Assembly (NCBI GenBank): GCA_043760135.1
Contig: JAYUPL010000007.1
Span: 64,106 to 128,105, forward strand
Direction: 5' to 3'
Length of the DNA stretch: 64,000 nt
Origin: Candidatus Parcubacteria bacterium
GTDB taxonomy: Bacteria > Patescibacteriota > Minisyncoccia > Phycocordibacterales > CAIZLB01
Shown here piece after piece: positions 362 through 61,429 of the stretch (the first letter of the stretch is position 1; the number at the start of each line of letters is the position of its first letter). The notes under the pieces are model-generated. The model had not been told where the DNA came from, did not search any database, and saw nothing but the letters and a program-made list of their open reading frames with translations. The position numbers were made by a program, and so were the translations under genes.

Positions 362-457
362 CTTGACTTGGTTTTAGTATTTGTTATTATAACTATATTC
401 CTACATTCGATTCCGAAAGCGAATCAATGATCCAGATATCAAAATCTGGTGACTACA

Positions 458-850
458 TTAAGAAAGCTCTAATAGAGATATTAGTTGCTTTTTTATTTTA
501 GCGAAGTCTCCAATATTTATATATCCAATATAATAATAGAATCGATTAATAGAAATTAATCTGATTTGATTTAACATAATCCAATTCTTTTTATTATTAA
601 TATTATTTAATTCATAAAACCAAGATCCTGAATTTTTCTGTGTTGTTAAGGGTAATATTATACAGGTTTTACTATCTAATTTTTTAAGAATTAGCACAGG
701 ACGAGAAAAATTATCGCCAACTCCATCTTGTTCTTGCCCAATATTTTTACCAATTTTGCACCACCAAATATCCCTTTCTCTAACAAGGATATCCATATCT
801 TTTATAGCTTTCTTTTTTTCATTCCATTCGTCATATATGTTTATATTCAT
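458..850 (-). CDS. MazF/PemK-family endoribonuclease toxin-like protein (solitary)
   Basis: Motifs DIWWCKIG..GQEQDG...RPVLIL and ILPLTTQK...ILNQIRLI align with E. coli MazF (GDLIWVDF..GSEQAGHRPAVVLS; CVPCTTQSKG); paralog of 18412..18774. Confidence 0.6.
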   Translation of the reverse strand: MNINIYDEWNEKKKAIKDMDILVRERDIWWCKIGKNIGQEQDGVGDNFSRPVLILKKLDSKTCIILPLTTQKNSGSWFYELNNINNKKNWIMLNQIRLISINRFYYYIGYINIGDFAKIKKQLISLLELS

Positions 851-18344: not shown

Positions 18345-18367
18345 AAATAATTAATCTTTTCTTTCAG

Positions 18368-18399
18368 ATTTCTTTATGAGAACTTTATAAGGTGTTTGG
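18368..18399 (+). promoter_or_regulatory. Conserved upstream element ATTTCTTTATGAGAACTTTATAAGGTGTTTGG (copy 2 of 5), ends 13 nt before the MazF-like start
   Basis: Near-identical to 53704..53734. Confidence 0.45.
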
Positions 18400-18411
18400 T
18401 AGGATTATTGG

Positions 18412-18774
18412 ATGAATGAAAATAACACAGACAAAGAAAAAGATTTAATTGTAAAACTAGGTGAAATATTTTGGTGCTATTTGGGTGTAAACGTTGGTTC
18501 AGAACAAAACGGAAGTGGAACTGATAAAACTAGGCCAGTATTAATTATTAATAAGTTTTCAGAGAAATTTTTTCTCGGAGCACCATTGACTAGTAAAAAA
18601 CATAAAGGCGATTGGTATGTAAAAATATCCTTTAATGATTCCTGTGTAATATTAAATCAAGTTAGGCCTATTGATATAAAAAGATTAATAGATAAAGTTG
18701 GGCAAATATCCGAAGAAGATCTAGAAAATATTTTATATAAATATGTTGATCTTATAAAACACAAAAAACACTAA
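18412..18774 (+). CDS. MazF/PemK-family endoribonuclease toxin-like protein (solitary)
   Basis: GEIFWCYLGVNVGSEQNGSG...RPVLIIN; APLTSKKHKGDWYVKI; ILNQVRPIDIKRL; paralog of 458..850. Confidence 0.6.
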   Translation: MNENNTDKEKDLIVKLGEIFWCYLGVNVGSEQNGSGTDKTRPVLIINKFSEKFFLGAPLTSKKHKGDWYVKISFNDSCVILNQVRPIDIKRLIDKVGQISEEDLENILYKYVDLIKHKKH

Positions 18775-19017
18775 ATAAATAGTGTTTTTTGAGCTAAACA
18801 AAAGTATTTTCATACTTTCGGCTGGGTAGTCGACCCCGAAACTGTAGCTTCATTTTAGCAAATAAGTTTAACTTGTCAAATTTATATAAATCGTCACTCG
18901 ACCAAAGTCGAAAGGATTGATAAAACTTCAACCCTCAAAGGTGATATTATTGTACCAAAAATATAATCTCTGTCAAACCTCGAAAAACCAATAAATCTAT
19001 GCTAAAATATTGTCTAT

Positions 19018-42255: not shown

Positions 42256-42308
42256 ATATCTATTTTAAATGTTTAGAGGCCGATGTGCAAGTGCTTTGGC
42301 TTCTTTAG

Positions 42309-42330
42309 ACTTTCTTTATTAGAACTTCAT
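42309..42330 (+). promoter_or_regulatory. Conserved upstream element ACTTTCTTTATTAGAACTTCAT (copy 3 of 5), upstream of the DUF3800 gene
   Basis: Same core as the other four copies. Confidence 0.4.
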
Positions 42331-42353
42331 CTCACTATTGTTATTATTTTTTG

Positions 42354-42911
42354 ATGACCAAAATCATATACATCGATGAATCAGGAATAAGCTCTAAGAT
42401 GGGGCATAGTGTACACGTGTCTTTATATATTGAGTTTAACAACCGTTTAGATTTATCAAACGAAATTACAAAGATAGAAAAACAACTTAAAATATCATAT
42501 ACACAATGGACCGAAATGCCCTGGAAGTTAAGATTAAAATTTGCTGAAAAGATAAAAGACTTAGACTTTGAGGTAAAAGCACTTGTTTACAGTAATCCTA
42601 TTTTACCGGAAGCAGGTTTAAGGATATCGTTGTTTGAGTTTGCTAAAGATAGTGGTATAGCAAGTATTTTTATTGATGGAAAAAAGAATAAGGGTTATGA
42701 GAAAGAATTAAAGGCCTTATTACGAAATAGGGGGATAAAAGTGTATGATCTAAGAATAATTGATGATAAAAAGGAGTCGTTAATACGAATTGCAGACTTT
42801 ATGGCTGGATTAATAAGGTCTTATACAGATTTTTCAAATAAGTACAGTATATTCATCTTTAATCTGTTAAAAGACAAAATTGAAATAGATAAAGCAAAAA
42901 TGCCCGATTAA
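42354..42911 (+). CDS. DUF3800-family protein
   Basis: IYIDESG N-terminal motif...LIRIADFMAG; the track ORF starts at 42351 (TTG), ATG at 42354. Confidence 0.5.
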   Translation: MTKIIYIDESGISSKMGHSVHVSLYIEFNNRLDLSNEITKIEKQLKISYTQWTEMPWKLRLKFAEKIKDLDFEVKALVYSNPILPEAGLRISLFEFAKDSGIASIFIDGKKNKGYEKELKALLRNRGIKVYDLRIIDDKKESLIRIADFMAGLIRSYTDFSNKYSIFIFNLLKDKIEIDKAKMPD

Positions 42912-43042
42912 GGGCATTTTCACTCCATGCGACAGGGCGCCGGCGCAGAGGATAAGGACTTTTACATCCACGGTCTAACGGACCTTTTTCGCCTCCTGCC
43001 TGTTACTCTTACTATTTTATCAAATCTGTAAAACCTGTCAAG

Positions 43043-45095: not shown

Positions 45096-47585
45096 ATGCC
45101 AAAGTCGCGAATAAACCAAAATGACAACGAAAATACAGAGGAAGTTGAAATTATACCCCATCAGAACGTGATCCAGAGAAATATAGTAGACGAAATGGAG
45201 GAGTCATATATCGATTATGCCATGAGTGTTATTACCGACCGTGCTCTACCCGATATTCGCGACGGTCTAAAACCTGTACAAAGACGTATTTTGTTTGCTA
45301 TGAGTAGGTTAGGTCTTTTACCAACTGCTAAATTTCAAAAGTCAGCCAAAGTGGTCGGAGAAACTATGGGTAACTACCACCCTCACGGTGATGCTGCCAT
45401 CTATCAAACTATGGTGAATATGGTGCAAGATTTTAACATGAGATATCCTTTGATCTGGGGACAAGGAAACTTTGGTAACGTTGATGGATATCCTGCAGCG
45501 GCTTCTCGTTATACTGAAAGTAAATTAAATAAAATCACTCTAAACATTTTAGCCGATCTTGATAAAGACACAGTGGATTTTCGTCCAAACTATGACGGAA
45601 CAAGAAAAGAACCTTCTGTATTACCAACACAGATTCCAAACTTCCTATTAAATGGTACTTTAGGTATTGCTGTGGGTATGGCCACAAACATTCCTCCTCA
45701 CAACCTAAATGAAGTGATGGATGCAGTGAACCATCTTGTTGATAATCCTGACGCAACCGTTCTTGATTTGATGCAATTTATCAAAGGACCAGATTTTCCT
45801 ACAGGCGCCATTGCATTTAACCAAAAAGATATAGAACATGCATGTACCCATGGTCGTGGTGGTGTTGTTGTGCGTGGTGAAGCTGAAATAGTTGAGGAAA
45901 AAGCTGGACAATCAAAGATTGTGATCAACTCTATTCCTTATAGAGTAAATAAATCATCGCTTATAGAGGCTATAGCCGACCTTGTGCGTGATAAAAAGCT
46001 TGAGGGTATCAAAGATATCAGAGATGAGTCTACAAGTGATATACGTATCGTTATAGAGCTTAAGAACGGAATGTACCCACAAAACATCCTAAACTATTTG
46101 TATAAACATACTCAATTGGAATCAACATTTCACTATAACTTAGTTGCATTAGTTGATGGTGTGCCTCAAACTTTGTCTATTAAGTCAGCTCTTGAAAATT
46201 TTGTTGGACATAGAAAAACAGTTATCAGACGTAGAACTGAGTTTGATCTTAGAAAAGCTGAAGATCGCGAGCATATCTTGCTTGGATTGAAAAAAGCTCT
46301 GGACCATATCGATGAAATCATTGCTATTATCAAGAAAAGTAAAGATACACCAGCTGCTCATATTGCCTTGATGAAAGAGTTTAAGTTCTCTGATCGTCAA
46401 ACTACAGCTATTTTGGAAATGAAACTGGCTCGTCTTGCGTCTCTCGAAAGAAAGAAAATTGAAGATGAATTAAAAGCACTGCAAGAAATTATCAAAGACT
46501 TGAAAGATATTCTAAAGAATACTTCAAGAATCTTGACTATTATTAAAGATGAATCAAATGCGATCAAAGAAAAATTTGGTGATGAAAGACGAACTCGTAT
46601 TGTAAAAGGTGGTGTAGCCAACGTTGGTGTAGAAGATGTGATTCCAGATCAAGAGTCTGTGCTTGTATTAACTGCCGGCGGATACATCAAACGTACAAAT
46701 CCAGATGAATACAAAAAACAACGAAGAGGAGGTGTGGGTGTTGTTGATGTTGATGTAAAGGAGGAGGATTTCATAACTCATCTTGTATCAGCTACGATGC
46801 ATAACGAGCTATTATTCTTCACTGATAAAGGTAAAGCATATCAAATCAAAATGTATGATATTCCAGAAGGAAAACGTGCAACTCGTGGTAAATCAATCAT
46901 GAACTTCTTATCTCTAGCACAAGATGAAAAAGTTACATCAATTCTTCCAATGCCAAAAGAAGTTAAAAAAGTTGATGATATATCTTTGATGTTGATCACT
47001 AAACTTGGTACAGGAAAGCGTGTAAACTTGTCTTCTTTCCGTGATGTAAGACGAAGTGGGATTATTGCTATCTCACTTGATGACAGTGATAGTTTGATTT
47101 CAGCTTCTTTTGTAAATGAAAAAGATTCTATGATTTTAGTTGCAACTGATGCACAATCAATCAGATTCTCTATCAATGAAATACGTGAAATGGGTAGATC
47201 GGCCGGTGGTGTTCGTGCAATGAAGCTCGATAAAAATGTTTCTATTATTGGTGCTATTCCGGTTAAATTTGGTTCTAAAGATGATGCTGAACTCTTAACC
47301 GTTTCTGCAAATGGATATGGTAAAAAAACCTCACTTTCAGAATACAAGATCCAAGGACGTGGTGGATCAGGAATAAAAACTTTTAAAGTTACAAGTAAAA
47401 CCGGAGACCTTATTGCTTCACAAGTTGTAACTCCAGAGCTCGATGAGATTGTTGCAATCAGTAAAAAGAGTCAGGTGATTAGATGTGAATTGAAAGAGAT
47501 TCCAAATCTTGGACGCGATACACAAGGCGTAAGAGTTATGAAATTACGTGAAGGGGATAGTCTCGCATCAGTTATAGGGGTATAA
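45096..47585 (+). CDS. gyrA: DNA gyrase subunit A
   Basis: [21 protein letters not shown]...[13 protein letters not shown]...; C-terminal beta-pinwheel repeats. Confidence 0.9.
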
Positions 47586-49904: not shown

Positions 49905-50459
49905 ATGAAAAAATTGGTAATACTAATAATGATGCTGATACTGAGTGTAGGAGTGAGTGCGGATACGACAAATTCAAACGGAGTAGGCGATGATACAAAT
50001 TCGAATGGAGTAGGTGATACAACCAACTCAAATGGTTTAGGAGATGACACTCCAAATGACTATGATCCAAAAGTAGATCCAAATTTCTATAAGGACGGGA
50101 CTCCAAAAAGTACAAGTAAGGCAGGTTTTGATCCATCAAATTTAAATAAAAATCCTTTTTCATCTGGATCTGAAGGGGTTCCAAAGCTTTCTTTGTTAGG
50201 TATAGTGTACTGGCTCGCAGGTTTGATGAATCAGTTGGTCTATTTGATTATTGGAGCATCACTTGTTTGTTTTTTATATGGAATATTTAAACTATCATTT
50301 GTAGATGGACAAAAACCAGAAGCTCGAGAGCAAGCACGAAAATTTATGTTCTGGGGAATCGTTTCTCTGTTTGTAATGATGTCAGTTTGGGGATTGGTTA
50401 ATATACTAAAACTTTCACTCTTCGGTCCTGGAGACTTGATTATACCAAGACTTAAGTAG
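49905..50459 (+). CDS. Small two-helix membrane protein, pilin-like (paralog 3 of 5), signal peptide plus TNSNGVGDD repeats
   Basis: VDGQKPEAREQARKFMFWGIVSLFVMMSVWGLVNIL. Confidence 0.45.
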   Translation: MKKLVILIMMLILSVGVSADTTNSNGVGDDTNSNGVGDTTNSNGLGDDTPNDYDPKVDPNFYKDGTPKSTSKAGFDPSNLNKNPFSSGSEGVPKLSLLGIVYWLAGLMNQLVYLIIGASLVCFLYGIFKLSFVDGQKPEAREQARKFMFWGIVSLFVMMSVWGLVNILKLSLFGPGDLIIPRLK

Positions 50460-50513
50460 TATAATATGTGCATCATTATAAATAATAAAAAATATTAAAA
50501 AACACTAAACAAA

Positions 50514-50906
50514 ATGAAAAAAATACTATCATTACTCATCACACTGTCACCAACAGTTTTACTGGCTAACGACGACCAAGCACCTATCGCAAGAACTGTT
50601 GATGGACTGCTTAACTGGCTTATATACATAGCTGGACGAGCACTACCTCTTCTTATTCTAGCTGCTCTTGTACTATTTTTGTTCGGTATAGTAAAAAGAT
50701 TCTTCTGGGCAAAAGATACAGCAGATAAAGGTGAAGCTGGAAGATATATATTGTGGGGTGTGGTTGCTTTGTTTGTTATGGTATCAGTTTGGGGACTTGT
50801 AAACGTTTTAAGAGGTTCATTTAATCTAGATAACAACAACGTGCCTCTCGCACCTGCTGTTCCTGTACAAAATGCTCCATATGCAGCTCCTACAACAAGA
50901 CCATAG
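50514..50906 (+). CDS. Small two-helix membrane protein, pilin-like (paralog 4 of 5)
   Basis: AKDTADKGEAGRYILWGVVALFVMVSVWGLVNVL. Confidence 0.45.
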   Translation: MKKILSLLITLSPTVLLANDDQAPIARTVDGLLNWLIYIAGRALPLLILAALVLFLFGIVKRFFWAKDTADKGEAGRYILWGVVALFVMVSVWGLVNVLRGSFNLDNNNVPLAPAVPVQNAPYAAPTTRP

Positions 50907-50960
50907 GTCTCTCTAATGTTAGTTATAAAAAGATTTGCGGTTCATAGCCTCAAGTCTTTT

Positions 50961-51073
50961 TTTGTTATTAACGACCGTTGGGTGAGTGAAATGAACGTGT
51001 TAGCACTTTCATTTCCGAACTGAGGAGTTAACATGATTACCACCTGGATGCTTTGCGTCGAGAAGGTAATCAT
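50961..51073 (-). repeat. Structured repeat Y (inverted copy of X): TTATTAACGACCGTTGGGTGAGTG, hairpin (GAAATGAA...TTCATTTC), CCGAACTGAGGAGTTAAC, hairpin (ATGATTACC...GGTAATCAT)
   Basis: Arms match the reverse complement of 47625..47690. Confidence 0.7.
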
Positions 51074-51080
51074 TATATAA

Positions 51081-51386
51081 TTGTTCTATATGCAAAAAGT
51101 CTATTCAATAATATCTAAGATCAATGATATTATTATTAATCCTATTATCCTCCTTTTGTTTTCAGTAGCGCTACTTTATTTTATGTTTGGAGTGTTTGAG
51201 TACATATGGAAATCGAGATCAGATCCAGGAAAAATTAAAGAAGGTAGATCTCATATGGGTTGGGGATTGTTCGGGATGTTTATTATGATTTCAGTTTTTG
51301 GTTTATTTAAAATTTTGCTGAATACTGTACCGGTGAGTGAGAGAACTAAAACAAATGTGAATAGGGTAATGGATCTCGATAAATAA
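51081..51386 (+). CDS. Small two-helix membrane protein, pilin-like (paralog 5 of 5), outside the X/Y-bracketed segment
   Basis: WKSRSDPGKIKEGRSHMGWGLFGMFIMISVFGLFKIL. Confidence 0.45.
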   Translation: MFYMQKVYSIISKINDIIINPIILLLFSVALLYFMFGVFEYIWKSRSDPGKIKEGRSHMGWGLFGMFIMISVFGLFKILLNTVPVSERTKTNVNRVMDLDK

Positions 51387-53639: not shown

Positions 53640-53703
53640 AATGGAGATAATATACTATTTTTTAAGCCAGAAAGCAATACTTTTATTCGAAGTTTCTTTA
53701 TTA

Positions 53704-53734
53704 TTTCTTTATGAGAACTTTATTGAGGTTTTTC
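53704..53734 (+). promoter_or_regulatory. Conserved upstream element ATTTCTTTATGAGAACTTTATTGAGGTTTTT (copy 4 of 5)
   Basis: Near-identical to 18368..18399; partially duplicated just upstream (GTTTCTTTATTA). Confidence 0.45.
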
Positions 53735-53770
53735 TATGATATATGAATAACAACCAGAAATTTACAAAAA

Positions 53771-54154
53771 ATGAAAAATCTTATTAAAGTCTATTATTCA
53801 CTAGATCAAGGTATTCCTATTGACCATCATTTAGAATTAATCAGGATTCATGATAGTTGCGATATTTATATTTCCAGAAAGGCATTGAAACATTTTGTTG
53901 AAAGCCGAAAAAAAGAGATGATTGAAACCCGTAATCAGAAAGAGATCTGTGATAAGTTATGTTTTGCTGTTAAAAATGTAATTTTTACATATATAAAGTA
54001 TGACAGAATTGAACAATCATCACTAAATAGGTTGATATATATAAAATATTTTAAAAAATTGCGAAATTCCAGTTTAGGTATTGTGGTAGAACGAGTTGAA
54101 GACAGGAGTGAAATTTGTTCAATACATTTCAAGAAACACAAAAAACCACCTTAA
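53771..54154 (+). CDS. Hypothetical small protein, 'ISRKALKHFVESR' family (paralog 1)
   Basis: Paralog of 60741..61085 (HLELIRI...ISRKALKHFVESRKKEM vs FLELVFV...ISRRALKHFVESRSSEM); stop codon lies in a terminator loop. Confidence 0.5.
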   Translation: MKNLIKVYYSLDQGIPIDHHLELIRIHDSCDIYISRKALKHFVESRKKEMIETRNQKEICDKLCFAVKNVIFTYIKYDRIEQSSLNRLIYIKYFKKLRNSSLGIVVERVEDRSEICSIHFKKHKKPP

Positions 54155-54166
54155 AGTGGTTTTTTG
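54139..54166 (+). terminator. Rho-independent terminator (AAAAAACCACC-ttaaa-GTGGTTTTTT), stop codon in the loop
   Basis: Read from the sequence. Confidence 0.7.
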
Positions 54167-54175
54167 TGAGACTTA

Positions 54176-54283
54176 GGATGACGGCAAGGACAAATAATTA
54201 CTTACTTGTGTTTTCATCCATGAGTACGTTGATATTTCTACCAAGTCCGCAGCACAGCCGATTGTTAATTTTCTGTCGTTAAG
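54176..54283 (+). other. Conserved about 110-nt 3' tail (copy 1): GGATGACGGCAA...TTTCATCCATGAGTACGTT...CCAAGTCCGCAGCACAGCCGATTGTTAATTTTCTGTCGTTAAG; possible structured RNA
   Basis: Three conserved blocks shared with 61112..61214; GGATGA/TCATCC form a stem around a variable loop. Confidence 0.4.
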
Positions 54284-54316
54284 TCTTATGTAACAATATT
54301 ATCAAAAAAAATAACC

Positions 54317-54748
54317 TTGTCAATAAAAATGAAAAAAACAACAAATAATGAACAACATGGCTTTATAACCCTATTTTTTATATTGGGGGTATCATTTACT
54401 TTTCTAACCTGGATTTCGTTGAGTTCGGAAAGGGTATTTGGGTACATACGTATAAAGGATGATTTTATTGCATCCAGATCTGTACTACATGATCATATTC
54501 TCTGTGCTGATGCTTTTATTAATATAGTGATTGAATCTCGACATAATTTGAGTTTTAATGGTGGCATCTATAATTTTAAGAGGAATTTGTATTTCGTGGA
54601 TGATTTTTCATGCAATATTAAATCTATAAGCTCAACCCATGAAGATAACACTATTAAGACTGTTTTCTTTACTATTGGTGAATTTCGCTTTGAGTATCAG
54701 TTTAAAAATGGTTTTGTAAACTCTATCAAATCTTTCAATTTATTTTAG
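54317..54748 (+). CDS. Putative minor pilin / pseudopilin-like protein (non-canonical prepilin N-terminus)
   Basis: QHGFITLFFILGVSFTFL hydrophobic N-terminal segment immediately upstream of a canonical type IV pilin. Confidence 0.3.
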   Translation: MSIKMKKTTNNEQHGFITLFFILGVSFTFLTWISLSSERVFGYIRIKDDFIASRSVLHDHILCADAFINIVIESRHNLSFNGGIYNFKRNLYFVDDFSCNIKSISSTHEDNTIKTVFFTIGEFRFEYQFKNGFVNSIKSFNLF

Positions 54749-55726: not shown

Positions 55727-56779
55727 ATGGCAAATACTTCAACACCTACATTTTCATTTAAGGTGAAAAATGTAACTAAAAAATTATTATCAGCTATACC
55801 CGAACGCTCAAGGGTTATTATCTCACACCGCTTTGGACTTGATAAAAGTACTGAGAAAATGACTCTTGAAGCTATCGGTGAAAACTATGATATTACTCGT
55901 GAAAGAGTAAGACAGATAGAAGCTAACTCTATAGTGACTATTAGAAAGTCTCAAGTGTTCAAAGAAGAGTCTAAGGTCTTTGAAGAGTTGGCTTTATATA
56001 TCAAAAAAATAGGAGGTATTATCGCTGAGCATGATTTGCTGAACCATCTATCAAAAGATGAGTCAACTCAAAATCATTATCATTTCCTATTGATCATCGG
56101 AGATCAATTTAAGAAAGAGAAGGAAACTGAAGAATTCCACCACCGATGGCATGTTGATTCAGAGCTATCTAAGAAGATTCACGATGCTTTGAAAAAACTA
56201 TATACAAACTTAGATGACAACTCATTGATCCCTGAAAACGAGATGATCAAATCTTTCATGGATAATGTGAAGGATATATCAGATGAATTGAAAAATGACG
56301 AAATCTCAAAGAGATGGTTGCGTATTTCAAAACATATCGATAAGAACCCTCTTGGTGAATGGGGTAAATCAGCTTCAACTAATGTAAAGGTGAAAGGTAT
56401 TAGAGATTATGCTTACCTTGCAATGAGAAAACATGGATCTCCTGTTCACTTTAAAGAAATCGCTAAATTGATCCAAAATGTGTTCGGTAAAAGAGCACAT
56501 GAAGCTACAACTCACAATGAGCTTATAAAAGATAATCGATTCGTTCTTGTAGGACGTGGTCTATATGCCTTGGCTGAATGGGGATATGTGTCAGGTGTGG
56601 TAAAAGACGTTATAGTTAAGGTTTTGGGTAAATATGGTCCTATGACAAGAGAAGAGATATTCGATAAGGTGATGAAGGAGAGGTATGTTAAAGAAAACAC
56701 TATATTGGTCAACTTGCAAAACTCATCGGCTTTCAAAAAGGATTCTTCAGGCAAATATCACGTAATAGCTGAAAAATAA
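55727..56779 (+). CDS. DNA-binding protein: N-terminal sigma-70 region-4-like HTH plus C-terminal HARE-HTH (RNAP delta-subunit-like) domain
   Basis: ERSRVIISHRFGLDKSTEKMTLEAIGENYDITRERVRQIEANSI (sigma region 4); GSPVHFKEIAKLIQ...HNELIKDNRFVLVGRGLYALAEWGY (HARE-HTH). Confidence 0.55.
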   Translation: MANTSTPTFSFKVKNVTKKLLSAIPERSRVIISHRFGLDKSTEKMTLEAIGENYDITRERVRQIEANSIVTIRKSQVFKEESKVFEELALYIKKIGGIIAEHDLLNHLSKDESTQNHYHFLLIIGDQFKKEKETEEFHHRWHVDSELSKKIHDALKKLYTNLDDNSLIPENEMIKSFMDNVKDISDELKNDEISKRWLRISKHIDKNPLGEWGKSASTNVKVKGIRDYAYLAMRKHGSPVHFKEIAKLIQNVFGKRAHEATTHNELIKDNRFVLVGRGLYALAEWGYVSGVVKDVIVKVLGKYGPMTREEIFDKVMKERYVKENTILVNLQNSSAFKKDSSGKYHVIAEK

Positions 56780-60630: not shown

Positions 60631-60662
60631 AATTCTTCAAGAGAACTTTATGTGGTCTTTGG
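60631..60662 (+). promoter_or_regulatory. Conserved upstream element AATTCTTCAAGAGAACTTTATGTGGTCTTTGG (copy 5 of 5)
   Basis: Same core; about 80 nt upstream of paralog 2. Confidence 0.4.
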
Positions 60663-60740
60663 TAAAATTCTTAAATCACTATAAATACAAGCACAATTAA
60701 AAAATTAATAAATGAATATTTTCATTTAAAAACAGGCGAA

Positions 60741-61085
60741 TTGATTGCCGATTTTTTAGAATTGGTATTTGTTTGTAAACTGAACAGTAAAGACGTATCT
60801 ATCTCTAGGAGGGCATTAAAGCACTTTGTGGAGAGTAGGTCTAGCGAAATGGCAGATAGTTACGAAAACAACAGTATCTTGGAAAAGATGTATTACATAA
60901 TAGATAATGTCGAAGATGTGCTCAATATGTATGATGTCTTTCAAACTATGAATGGCAGGTATTATTTTACTAAGCATTATTGGAAACTAGATAAACCCTC
61001 AATAAGAATAGTTTTAGAATTGGTAGATAATCACTTTGAAATAGTTACGATGTATTATAAGAAAACTAAAAACACCACCGAATGA
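60741..61085 (+). CDS. Hypothetical small protein, 'ISRRALKHFVESR' family (paralog 2; TTG start, lacks the N-terminal ~17 aa of paralog 1; possibly degenerate)
   Basis: Paralog of 53771..54154; the frame has no ATG; stop codon in a terminator loop. Confidence 0.4.
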   Translation: MIADFLELVFVCKLNSKDVSISRRALKHFVESRSSEMADSYENNSILEKMYYIIDNVEDVLNMYDVFQTMNGRYYFTKHYWKLDKPSIRIVLELVDNHFEIVTMYYKKTKNTTE

Positions 61086-61099
61086 ACGGTGGTGTTTTT
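61068..61099 (+). terminator. Rho-independent terminator (AAAAACACCACCG-aatgaa-CGGTGGTGTTTTT)
   Basis: Read from the sequence. Confidence 0.7.
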
Positions 61100-61111
61100 A
61101 GTTGTAGTCTG

Positions 61112-61214
61112 GGATGACGGCAACGCCTATTTTTCAATAGACACTTTCATCCATAAGTACTTTGTCTTTCAACAAAGTCCGCAGCAAGCCGATTGGTTAT
61201 TTTCTGTCCTTCAG
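61112..61214 (+). other. Conserved about 105-nt 3' tail (copy 2): GGATGACGGCAA...TTTCATCCATAAGTACTTT...CAAAGTCCGCAGCAAGCCGATTGGTTATTTTCTGTCCTTCAG
   Basis: Block-wise identical to 54176..54283 with variable spacers. Confidence 0.4.
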
Positions 61215-61429
61215 ATTACGTTGTTTATTTTAGCAAAATATATTTTATTGTCAAATTTTGTAAAAATAGCACCCTATAAAAGCGAAAAAGTGCCTGACAC
61301 CGCTTAGGGCACAGGACCTTTTTCTTCTGTGTTTTTATAATATCAAATCTCTGATTGTTGTCAAATTTTACCCCATAAAAAACAAAATCCGACAATGGAG
61401 TTCTTACATTTTTAGTATATAATAGACGC

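Follow-up and report, generated by a model that had tools for sequence, protein, structure and literature searches.

The window analysed here, a whole stretch of 64 kb from a Candidatus Parcubacteria bacterium, contains two copies of a small module at 53771-54283 (copy 1) and 60741-61214 (copy 2), which were read and aligned with each other. Each copy is predicted to pair a gene for a candidate ribonuclease (RNase) toxin, remotely related to PBECR3, a family of metal-independent endoribonucleases, with a convergent gene for a structured small RNA (sRNA) that is probably the RNA partner or antidote of the toxin. We assign a probability of about 0.5 to the reading of each copy as a toxin/RNA-antitoxin-like module, type III-like by function and not by layout, and infer RNase activity, toxicity, RNA-protein binding and neutralisation. 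Feature coordinates are collected in Table 1.

A separate small RNA gene on the minus strand

An earlier interpretation of this DNA, made from its letters only and referred to below as the sequence-only reading, had described the conserved stretch behind each protein gene as a structured 3' tail of the mRNA. Its block-by-block conservation was confirmed, with GGATGACGGCAA occurring exactly twice in 64 kb, once per tail, against 0.13 expected. Its assignment to the mRNA was not: a plus-strand terminator, where the mRNA should end, is located ahead of the tail, and the stretch is predicted to be a separate minus-strand sRNA gene with a near-consensus sigma-70 promoter, convergent to the protein gene. 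Of the four promoter-like sites that score highest in 53-62 kb, three are minus-strand sites on the far side of the tails, each with a TG-extended -10 box, at 54323->54296 after tail 1 and, after tail 2, at 61254->61227 and 110 nt further out at 61364->61337. The best terminator-like sites in the same interval are the hairpins at the ends of the protein genes read on the minus strand (54168->54137 and 61103->61064). Both stop codons do lie inside the loops of these hairpins (54137-54168 and 61064-61103), as had been proposed.

The 64 kb contain 7 matches to the strict promoter pattern TTGAC-N14-TGnTAnnAT, where 0.09 would be expected; each is located at a cassette's outer end and points towards the protein gene of that cassette. 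Most of the 28 homologues have a promoter-like site at a near-constant distance, with a -10 box that stops 18-20 nt short of CAGAAAAU in 21 of them, and in 27 of 28 the RNA is followed by a terminator. The folding energies also favour the minus strand, helices P2 and P3b summing to -113.6 and -135.9 kcal/mol in the minus sense compared with -56.0 and -91.5 kcal/mol for the reverse complement, and in the alignment of homologous RNAs the minus sense gives 39 G·U pairs against 8 A·C mispairs.

A coding reading of the tails was rejected. The plus-strand open reading frames (ORFs) crossing them (54115-54282, 55 aa; 61089-61307, 72 aa) are not considered genes: the reading frame is placed differently against the RNA blocks in the two copies, and the hairpins differ in length by steps that are not multiples of three. 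The 157-aa ORF P0010 is a read-through call of the same kind. Among the three roles suggested earlier for the tail, a riboregulator of the downstream plus-strand gene is contradicted by the RNA having a promoter and terminator of its own on the other strand, and an sRNA or antitoxin RNA fits best.

A structured RNA outside the described families

The structured core spans 54164-54290 in copy 1 and 61100-61222 in copy 2, on the minus strand in each case. When the window was searched with a covariance model derived from eight homologous RNAs, copy 1 included, just these two stretches matched strongly, with 139 and 85 bits, and each related locus gave one match. The fold comprises, in order, helix P1 closing the junction; the nearly invariant segment J1/2, GACAGAAAAUUAACAAUCGGCUUGCUGCGG; P2, often with a GAAA loop; the single strand UACUYAU; P3; and the terminator. 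In copy 1, the strand between P2 and P3 reads UACUCAU and P2 carries the GAAA loop. P3 consists of GGAUGA/UCAUCC, followed by an internal loop (AA / UGCCG) and the variable hairpin P3b, and J1/2 forms the nearly invariant 32-nt single-stranded junction of a three-way junction (P1, P2, P3/P3b). The GGATGA/TCATCC pairing recognised by the sequence-only reading is supported by the covarying forms GGGUGA/UCACCC and AGGUGA/UCACCU in homologues.

An alignment of 27 RNAs, representing distinct complete homologues from other Parcubacteria metagenome-assembled genomes (MAGs) and metagenomes, showed 95.1% of cells paired and double changes at 23 of the 28 pairs, compared with 28-41% paired for slid partners and 0 of 500 shuffles reaching the observed values. 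A MAFFT/RNAalifold alignment was set aside, having misaligned the variable hairpins and recovered P3 alone, and was replaced by anchor-based folding followed by covariance-model alignment. With anchor-based folding, every sequence formed P1, P2 and P3b despite differing sequences. A search for tertiary or pseudoknot covariation yielded clade-linked single columns only; the CGGC/GCCG complementarity in the RNA is invariant and thus offers no variation for covariation.

Against Rfam 15, nothing reached the gathering score, and up to an E-value of 10 only chance matches appeared, mostly over the terminator; the covariance models of DUF3800-I to -XI, drum and skipping-rope gave no match. Judged by these searches, the structured RNA belongs to no described family, and its 23 covarying pairs add a well-supported class absent from Rfam.

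The protein as a remote PBECR3-like relative

The protein, about 127-135 aa long, has a confident alpha/beta fold and no apparent membrane segment. PF18812 (PBECR3) was matched by 14 of 38 aligned family members, all below the gathering score, the best with 28.2, 27.0 and 24.0 bits (E 2e-6 to 4e-5) in a colinear match to profile positions 21-113 of 115; three members carry a precomputed PF18812 annotation. The AlphaFold2 model (mean predicted local distance difference test score, pLDDT, 87.5) comprises a helix at 36-50, beginning at the invariant motif ISRxALKHFVESR, two short helices, and strands at 79-84, 87-94, 100-109 and 112-122. This topology, a helix followed by a four-stranded sheet, agrees with the core of the Barnase-EndoU-ColicinE5/D-RelE (BECR) fold, described as a helix leading into a sheet of four or five strands (PMC5512222).

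At the helix start (LKHFVESR), protein alignment A3 shows an invariant K40 next to an H41 with at least 90% conservation, while in the last strand position 117 is Ser or Thr (CSIH or VTMH) and H119 is at least 90% conserved. The same catalytic residues, Lys-His in the N-terminal helix, a C-terminal Ser/Thr and a second His on the last strand, have been described in RNases of the PBECR and colicin-like BECR type (PMC5512222; 10.64898/2026.08.28.747851). The colinear sub-threshold PF18812 matches, the model topology and the retained catalytic residues are the grounds on which the protein is called a PBECR3-like RNase: by this comparison it is a remote relative and not a formal Pfam member, and probably an active RNase. 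The earlier guess of a RelE-like protein is accordingly correct at the level of the superfold only.

The top BFVD matches are phage polyvalent proteins, and weak Foldseek matches in the PDB include HigB1 and BrnT (3u97), the latter with a probability of 0.99 over 54 columns. Neither PADLOC, run on just the window proteins, nor a search of the protein profile against PDB sequences gave a match.

An old duplication and a conserved linkage

The proteins of the two copies are paralogues (37% identity, E 6e-19), confirming the duplicated module described by the sequence-only reading. Their coding nucleotides are 50% identical and, over aligned codons, the third positions 34%, while the unpaired RNA blocks are 82-91% identical, with 28 of 34 positions the same in the long unpaired block of junction J1/2 and 21 of 23 in the P3 region. 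Because the coding DNA and third positions have diverged and the RNA blocks have been kept, a recent segmental duplication is excluded, and the comparison indicates that the duplication of gene plus RNA is real and old. The outcome named beforehand as fatal to the idea, a uniform segmental duplication or a lack of further copies, was not what emerged: neither the flanks nor the coding DNA have stayed alike, and other genomes hold about 30 more units.

Relatives of the protein form 39 plus 16 close clusters, and a profile search of 1.8 billion proteins returned 109 representatives at 50% identity, the source names, where given, being Parcubacteria (Nomurabacteria, Taylorbacteria). Homologous loci were reached through the protein alone (L001-L009, L037, L038) or through two independent RNA patterns (L010-L036). 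In every locus with enough flanking sequence to judge, the family gene is convergent to the RNA. This linkage extends to the protein-only loci L001, L004, L007 and L009 and to the most remote homologues, L037 and L038, at 31-39% identity. The modules occupy different contexts (tRNA/pilin, rpsI/grpE, HIT/uvrD-like), and some MAGs hold three or four copies.

A phage origin is unsupported, neither RNA pattern being present in IMG/VR, and at their ends the window cassettes lack the direct or inverted repeats of a mobile element. The earlier suggestion that the tail is the conserved end of a mini-cassette stands in part: the cassette is bounded, by two promoters, but the conservation reflects RNA structure, as its covariation shows, and not a recombination site. 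In L015 (~960-1090), which is syntenic with copy 1, an in-frame deletion has removed the catalytic core of the protein, with the sRNA (140.6 bits) and its promoter intact.

Expression of the protein gene

The copy 1 promoter repeats have an 11-bp period (TTTCTTTAT-TA-TTTCTTTAT-GAG-AACTTTAT), and the same geometry recurs at about 20 homologous loci. The ATA at 53747 lies 7 nt past the -10 box, at the predicted +1, implying a leaderless mRNA; the first ATG is at 53771, giving the 127-aa version. The TAA at 54152-54154 closes the frame within the terminator, whose 5' arm encodes the C-terminal KKPP. In copy 2, ORF callers start at TTG 60741 (114 aa), although the frame is open from 60675 to the TGA at 61083-61085 and encodes ITINTSTIKKLINEYFHLKTGELIADF, homologous to the N-terminus of copy 1.

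In almost all family members the frame begins exactly 7 nt past the -10 box. About 20 lineages have ATC, ATA or ATT as this first codon, L011 and L018 have ATG, and L013 has GTG; ATG also occupies the position in the three remaining cassette genes of the window. The residues after the first codon are conserved (ITxNxxxKIKKLIxxYY), with synonymous changes and whole-codon indels. The family mRNA is thus apparently leaderless, with a weak AUC, AUA or AUU start at +1 as the usual form. Such a conserved near-cognate start is unusual and expected to hold translation very low, exposing an unusual expression design. The lengths of 114-117 aa called for copy 2 and its orthologues arise because gene callers accept only ATG, GTG and TTG.

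The sequence-only reading had noted that copy 2 lacks an ATG and the N-terminal 17 aa, and might be decaying. The ATG is indeed absent, yet this is the family norm; the N-terminus is encoded from 60675, and both the start type and the 114-aa call are common to the orthologues, so that copy 2 is not decaying.

Proposed function and alternatives

In the proposed mechanism, the sRNA, made from the stronger promoter, would bind the RNase directly and might keep it inactive by offering the invariant K-H active-site helix a pseudo-substrate in the form of its own invariant junction. Should sRNA supply fall or toxin synthesis rise, as under stress, phage attack or locus loss, the freed RNase would cut cellular or invader RNA. 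Antisense targeting of the cognate mRNA through the junction or core was considered and rejected, shuffled controls being as good: the complementarity of J1/2 alone, and of the whole structured core, to the cognate mRNA upstream of the terminator is no better than theirs. For this reason protein binding is favoured over antisense action. A directly binding pair of toxin and RNA antidote is preferred because this complementarity is lacking, because the RNA type tracks the protein type, because both partners keep an invariant element, and because the sRNA of L015 is intact beside a disrupted protein.

Several observations weigh against this interpretation. In L036 (~518-601), deletion has removed the terminator, P3 and part of P2 from the RNA, and the protein gene is still open with an altered C-terminus. 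The sRNA and mRNA overlap over the terminator by about 32-40 nt, with perfect complementarity there only, making an antisense contribution possible. The layout departs from that of every known type III system: there the antitoxin is an array of tandem RNA repeats, encoded ahead of the toxin gene in the same orientation with a terminator in between, and the toxin processes it, whereas the RNA here is single-copy, non-repetitive and convergent, with its own promoter; no tandem RNA repeats or ToxI-like array were found in or near it. The predicted toxin fold is BECR and not that of ToxN/AbiQ. On the protein side, a Pfam scan of the two window proteins alone gave no PBECR3 match and no family over threshold, the family does not reach the PF18812 gathering score of 30 bits, and Foldseek against the PDB found nothing significant (best E 0.03), NTF2-like folds scoring about like BrnT and HigB. 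On the RNA side, the model was what alignment A6 was fitted to, and some of the invariance of the P3 or J1/2 block comes from the search patterns themselves. The loci reached through the protein show the same RNA conservation as the pattern-found loci.

The alternative that survives best, though unlikely, is that the RNA is a positive partner of the RNase, acting as cofactor, scaffold, specificity determinant or sensor in a defence or regulatory ribonucleoprotein. It accords with the strict 1:1 linkage, with the co-conservation of invariant elements on both partners, and with RNA conservation at the level that Weinberg et al. tied to "sophisticated biochemical function" (PMC5737381). The persistence of the RNA beyond the catalytic core of the protein in L015 is an asymmetry expected for an antidote and less so for a cofactor, and the sister cassettes described below hold bona fide toxins (PemK/MazF) with no other antitoxin.

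Type I-like cis-antisense control comes next and is likewise unlikely; the sRNA would act through the 32-40 nt terminator overlap, triggering RNase III cleavage or destabilising the mRNA. The Bacillus pairs txpA/RatA and bsrG/SR4 are type I systems with 3'-overlapping convergent RNAs, and the present module resembles them in its convergent sRNA gene, in the 3' end overlapping the toxin mRNA, and in a strong, near-consensus antitoxin promoter opposite a weaker mRNA promoter; in the PemK cassette at 458-850, moreover, the opposing RNA is predicted to end within the coding region. It departs from them in a soluble, enzyme-like protein of ~135 aa, where type I toxins are small hydrophobic membrane peptides. 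The overlap is confined to a bidirectional terminator of a sort common in compact genomes, and the large conserved RNA domain, a covarying three-way junction with a 32-nt invariant single strand, is unneeded for cis-antisense and, in junction and core alike, has no mRNA complementarity beyond shuffled controls.

A riboswitch-like sensor is improbable. The junction would then be a ligand aptamer controlling its own terminator, with read-through giving a long antisense RNA over the toxin gene; antisense-controlling riboswitches are known, and the architecture resembles an aptamer in that P1 closes a conserved junction and is immediately followed by a terminator. Riboswitches occupy the 5' untranslated region (UTR) of a regulated same-strand gene, and here no such gene lies downstream, only antisense of the protein gene following the terminator; no conserved anti-terminator alternative was seen. 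Since different protein families within one genome each have their own RNA, recognition appears specific to the protein and not to a metabolite. Weinberg et al. rejected a riboswitch reading for analogous motifs (PMC5737381).

A plus-strand structured 3' UTR element, or the conserved recombination end of a mobile mini-cassette, would suit the position directly 3' of the gene and the differing intergenic contexts across genomes, but is very improbable given the plus-strand terminator before the tail, the G·U excess and helix energies favouring the minus strand, the minus-strand promoter and terminator bracketing the stretch, and the missing terminal repeats.

Comparison with known systems

The toxin/RNA-antidote interpretation shares its proposed logic with type III systems (ToxIN, CptIN, TenpIN), in which the small locus that encodes an endoribonuclease toxin also makes a dedicated and abundant structured RNA to inactivate the toxin, and, as with those systems, several paralogous copies may occur per genome. 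The layout, a single-copy convergent RNA with a BECR toxin, is new.

The closest RNAs are the DUF3800-I to -XI, drum and skipping-rope motifs, which were described without a proposed function (Weinberg et al. 2017, PMC5737381). Like them, the present RNA is a highly conserved, multi-stem and covarying structure ending in an intrinsic terminator, lies outside any 5' UTR, and is tied to one nearby protein family, which in those motifs may be on either strand. Its partner differs, being a PBECR3-like RNase and not DUF3800, yet the window itself holds a DUF3800 gene (42351-42911) in an identical cassette layout. A role as RNA antidote or partner of an effector thereby becomes a testable hypothesis for the DUF3800, drum and skipping-rope RNAs.

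With PBECR3 (PF18812) and colicin-like BECR RNases (Iyer et al. 2017, PMC5512222; 10.64898/2026.08.28.747851) the proteins share a colinear, near-full-length hidden Markov model match, the helix with four strands, and the Lys-His, Ser/Thr and His residues. They differ in being solo chromosomal Parcubacteria genes and not domains of phage polyvalent proteins, in scoring below the gathering threshold, and in having an RNA gene in the place of a protein immunity gene.

Sister cassettes and neighbouring features

The upstream element consists of phased CTTTAT repeats that cover the -35 position and has 5 matches in the window against 0.89 expected, belonging to the two copies studied, two PemK/MazF genes and one DUF3800 gene; its presence before both copies, already noted by the sequence-only reading, thus extends to three other genes. 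A sixth match at 46502-46528 was dismissed as chance, lying inside a coding region. The CTTTA(T) repeats, with an 11-bp period, are found at 53696-53723, 60635-60661, 18361-18387, 42303-42329 and 875-890, and in other genomes too, and look like a candidate binding site of a shared activator or repressor.

Table 1. Predicted features of the two modules and of the sister cassettes in the window.
Feature	Position	Strand	Remarks
Copy 1 promoter region	53693-53740	+	Phased CTTTAT repeats over the -35 position, then -10 box TATGAT 53735-53740
Copy 1 protein gene	53747-54154	+	PBECR3-like BECR-fold RNase candidate; frame from ATA 53747
Copy 1 terminator	54137-54168	both	Bidirectional, intrinsic; common to mRNA (+) and sRNA (-)
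Copy 1 sRNA, ~160 nt	54130-54289	-	Ends predicted from promoter and terminator (54289->~54130)
Copy 1 sRNA promoter	54296-54323	-	TTGACA-N16-(TG)A-TAATAT
Copy 2 promoter region	60633-60668	+	TTCTTCAAGAGAACTTTAT, then TGG-TAAAAT; -10 box 60663-60668
Copy 2 protein gene	60675-61085	+	Frame from ATC 60675, predicted +1
Copy 2 terminator	61064-61103	both	Bidirectional; 17-bp perfect arms
Copy 2 sRNA, ~160 nt	61057-61219	-	Ends predicted (61219->~61057)
Copy 2 sRNA promoter	61227-61254	-	TTGACA-N16-(TG)C-TAAAAT; 11/12 consensus positions
PemK/MazF gene	18412-18774	+	PF02452, E 2.8e-14; upstream element 18370-18388; ATG 7 nt past -10 box; region 18361-18976
Terminator of PemK/MazF 18412-18774	18762-18791	both	Bidirectional
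sRNA-like unit convergent to PemK/MazF 18412-18774	promoter 18852-18879	-	Fold z -5.3
Second PemK/MazF gene	458-850	-	E 2.7e-12; upstream element 874-892; cassette stretch 363-892
sRNA-like unit opposing PemK/MazF 458-850	promoter 363-390	+	Fold z -4.1
DUF3800 gene	42351-42911	+	PF12686, E 1.3e-6; same promoter element; cassette stretch 42303-43041
sRNA-like unit convergent to DUF3800	promoter 43014-43041	-	Same cassette layout

Neither window PemK/MazF gene has a MazE or other antitoxin gene upstream; the genes found there are an unrelated 322-aa gene and a 311-aa gene, the latter, upstream of PemK/MazF 458-850, looking miaA-like. The predicted terminator of the sRNA-like unit with its promoter at 363-390 falls inside the 3' end of the PemK/MazF 458-850 coding region. 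Cassettes of DUF3800 with a convergent RNA also occur in L031 (2447-3130) and L011 (3797-4540), the RNA of the former being homologous to that of the window DUF3800 cassette and that of the latter different. None of the sister-cassette RNAs matched DUF3800-I to -XI or any other Rfam model. Different protein families in one genome each come with their own, different RNA.

A predicted RNase toxin is in this way tied to an RNA within the same cassette frame as DUF3800 and PemK/MazF genes without protein antitoxins. Tentatively, and with less assurance than for the two modules themselves, these cassettes may represent a general class of undescribed toxin/RNA-antidote cassettes in Parcubacteria, comprising unrelated effectors (BECR RNase, PemK/MazF and DUF3800), each with its own non-repetitive, structured, convergent sRNA from a near-consensus promoter. 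The effector would be kept near-silent by a -35-less phased-repeat promoter and, for the RNase, by a leaderless AUC/AUA/AUU mRNA. If true, the DUF3800-associated RNA motifs would be RNA antitoxins, and MazF-family toxins would have RNA as well as protein antidotes. The pattern suggests that streamlined genomes of the Candidate Phyla Radiation (CPR) swap protein antitoxins and immunity proteins for RNAs.

Further consensus promoters at 18949-18976 and 61337-61364 (minus strand) precede short hairpin-containing stretches, 18880-18976 and 61262-61364, which have no partner gene and lie directly behind a cassette sRNA; they could be orphan sRNAs or remnants of sRNAs. The 61262-61330 unit is also conserved in L010, L019 and L020, and its 5' part (GAAAAAGGUCC) is similar to the DUF3800-associated RNA.

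Elsewhere in the window, 49905-51386 encodes three tandem paralogous small membrane proteins (184, 130 and 101 aa) with a common C-terminal hydrophobic motif (...WG.V.LF.M.SVWGL.N.L...). A few genes downstream of copy 1 lies a gene for a 350-aa protein (55727-56779), whose syntenic counterpart of exactly the same length in L001-L003 carries Sigma70_r4 and a faint HARE-HTH match.

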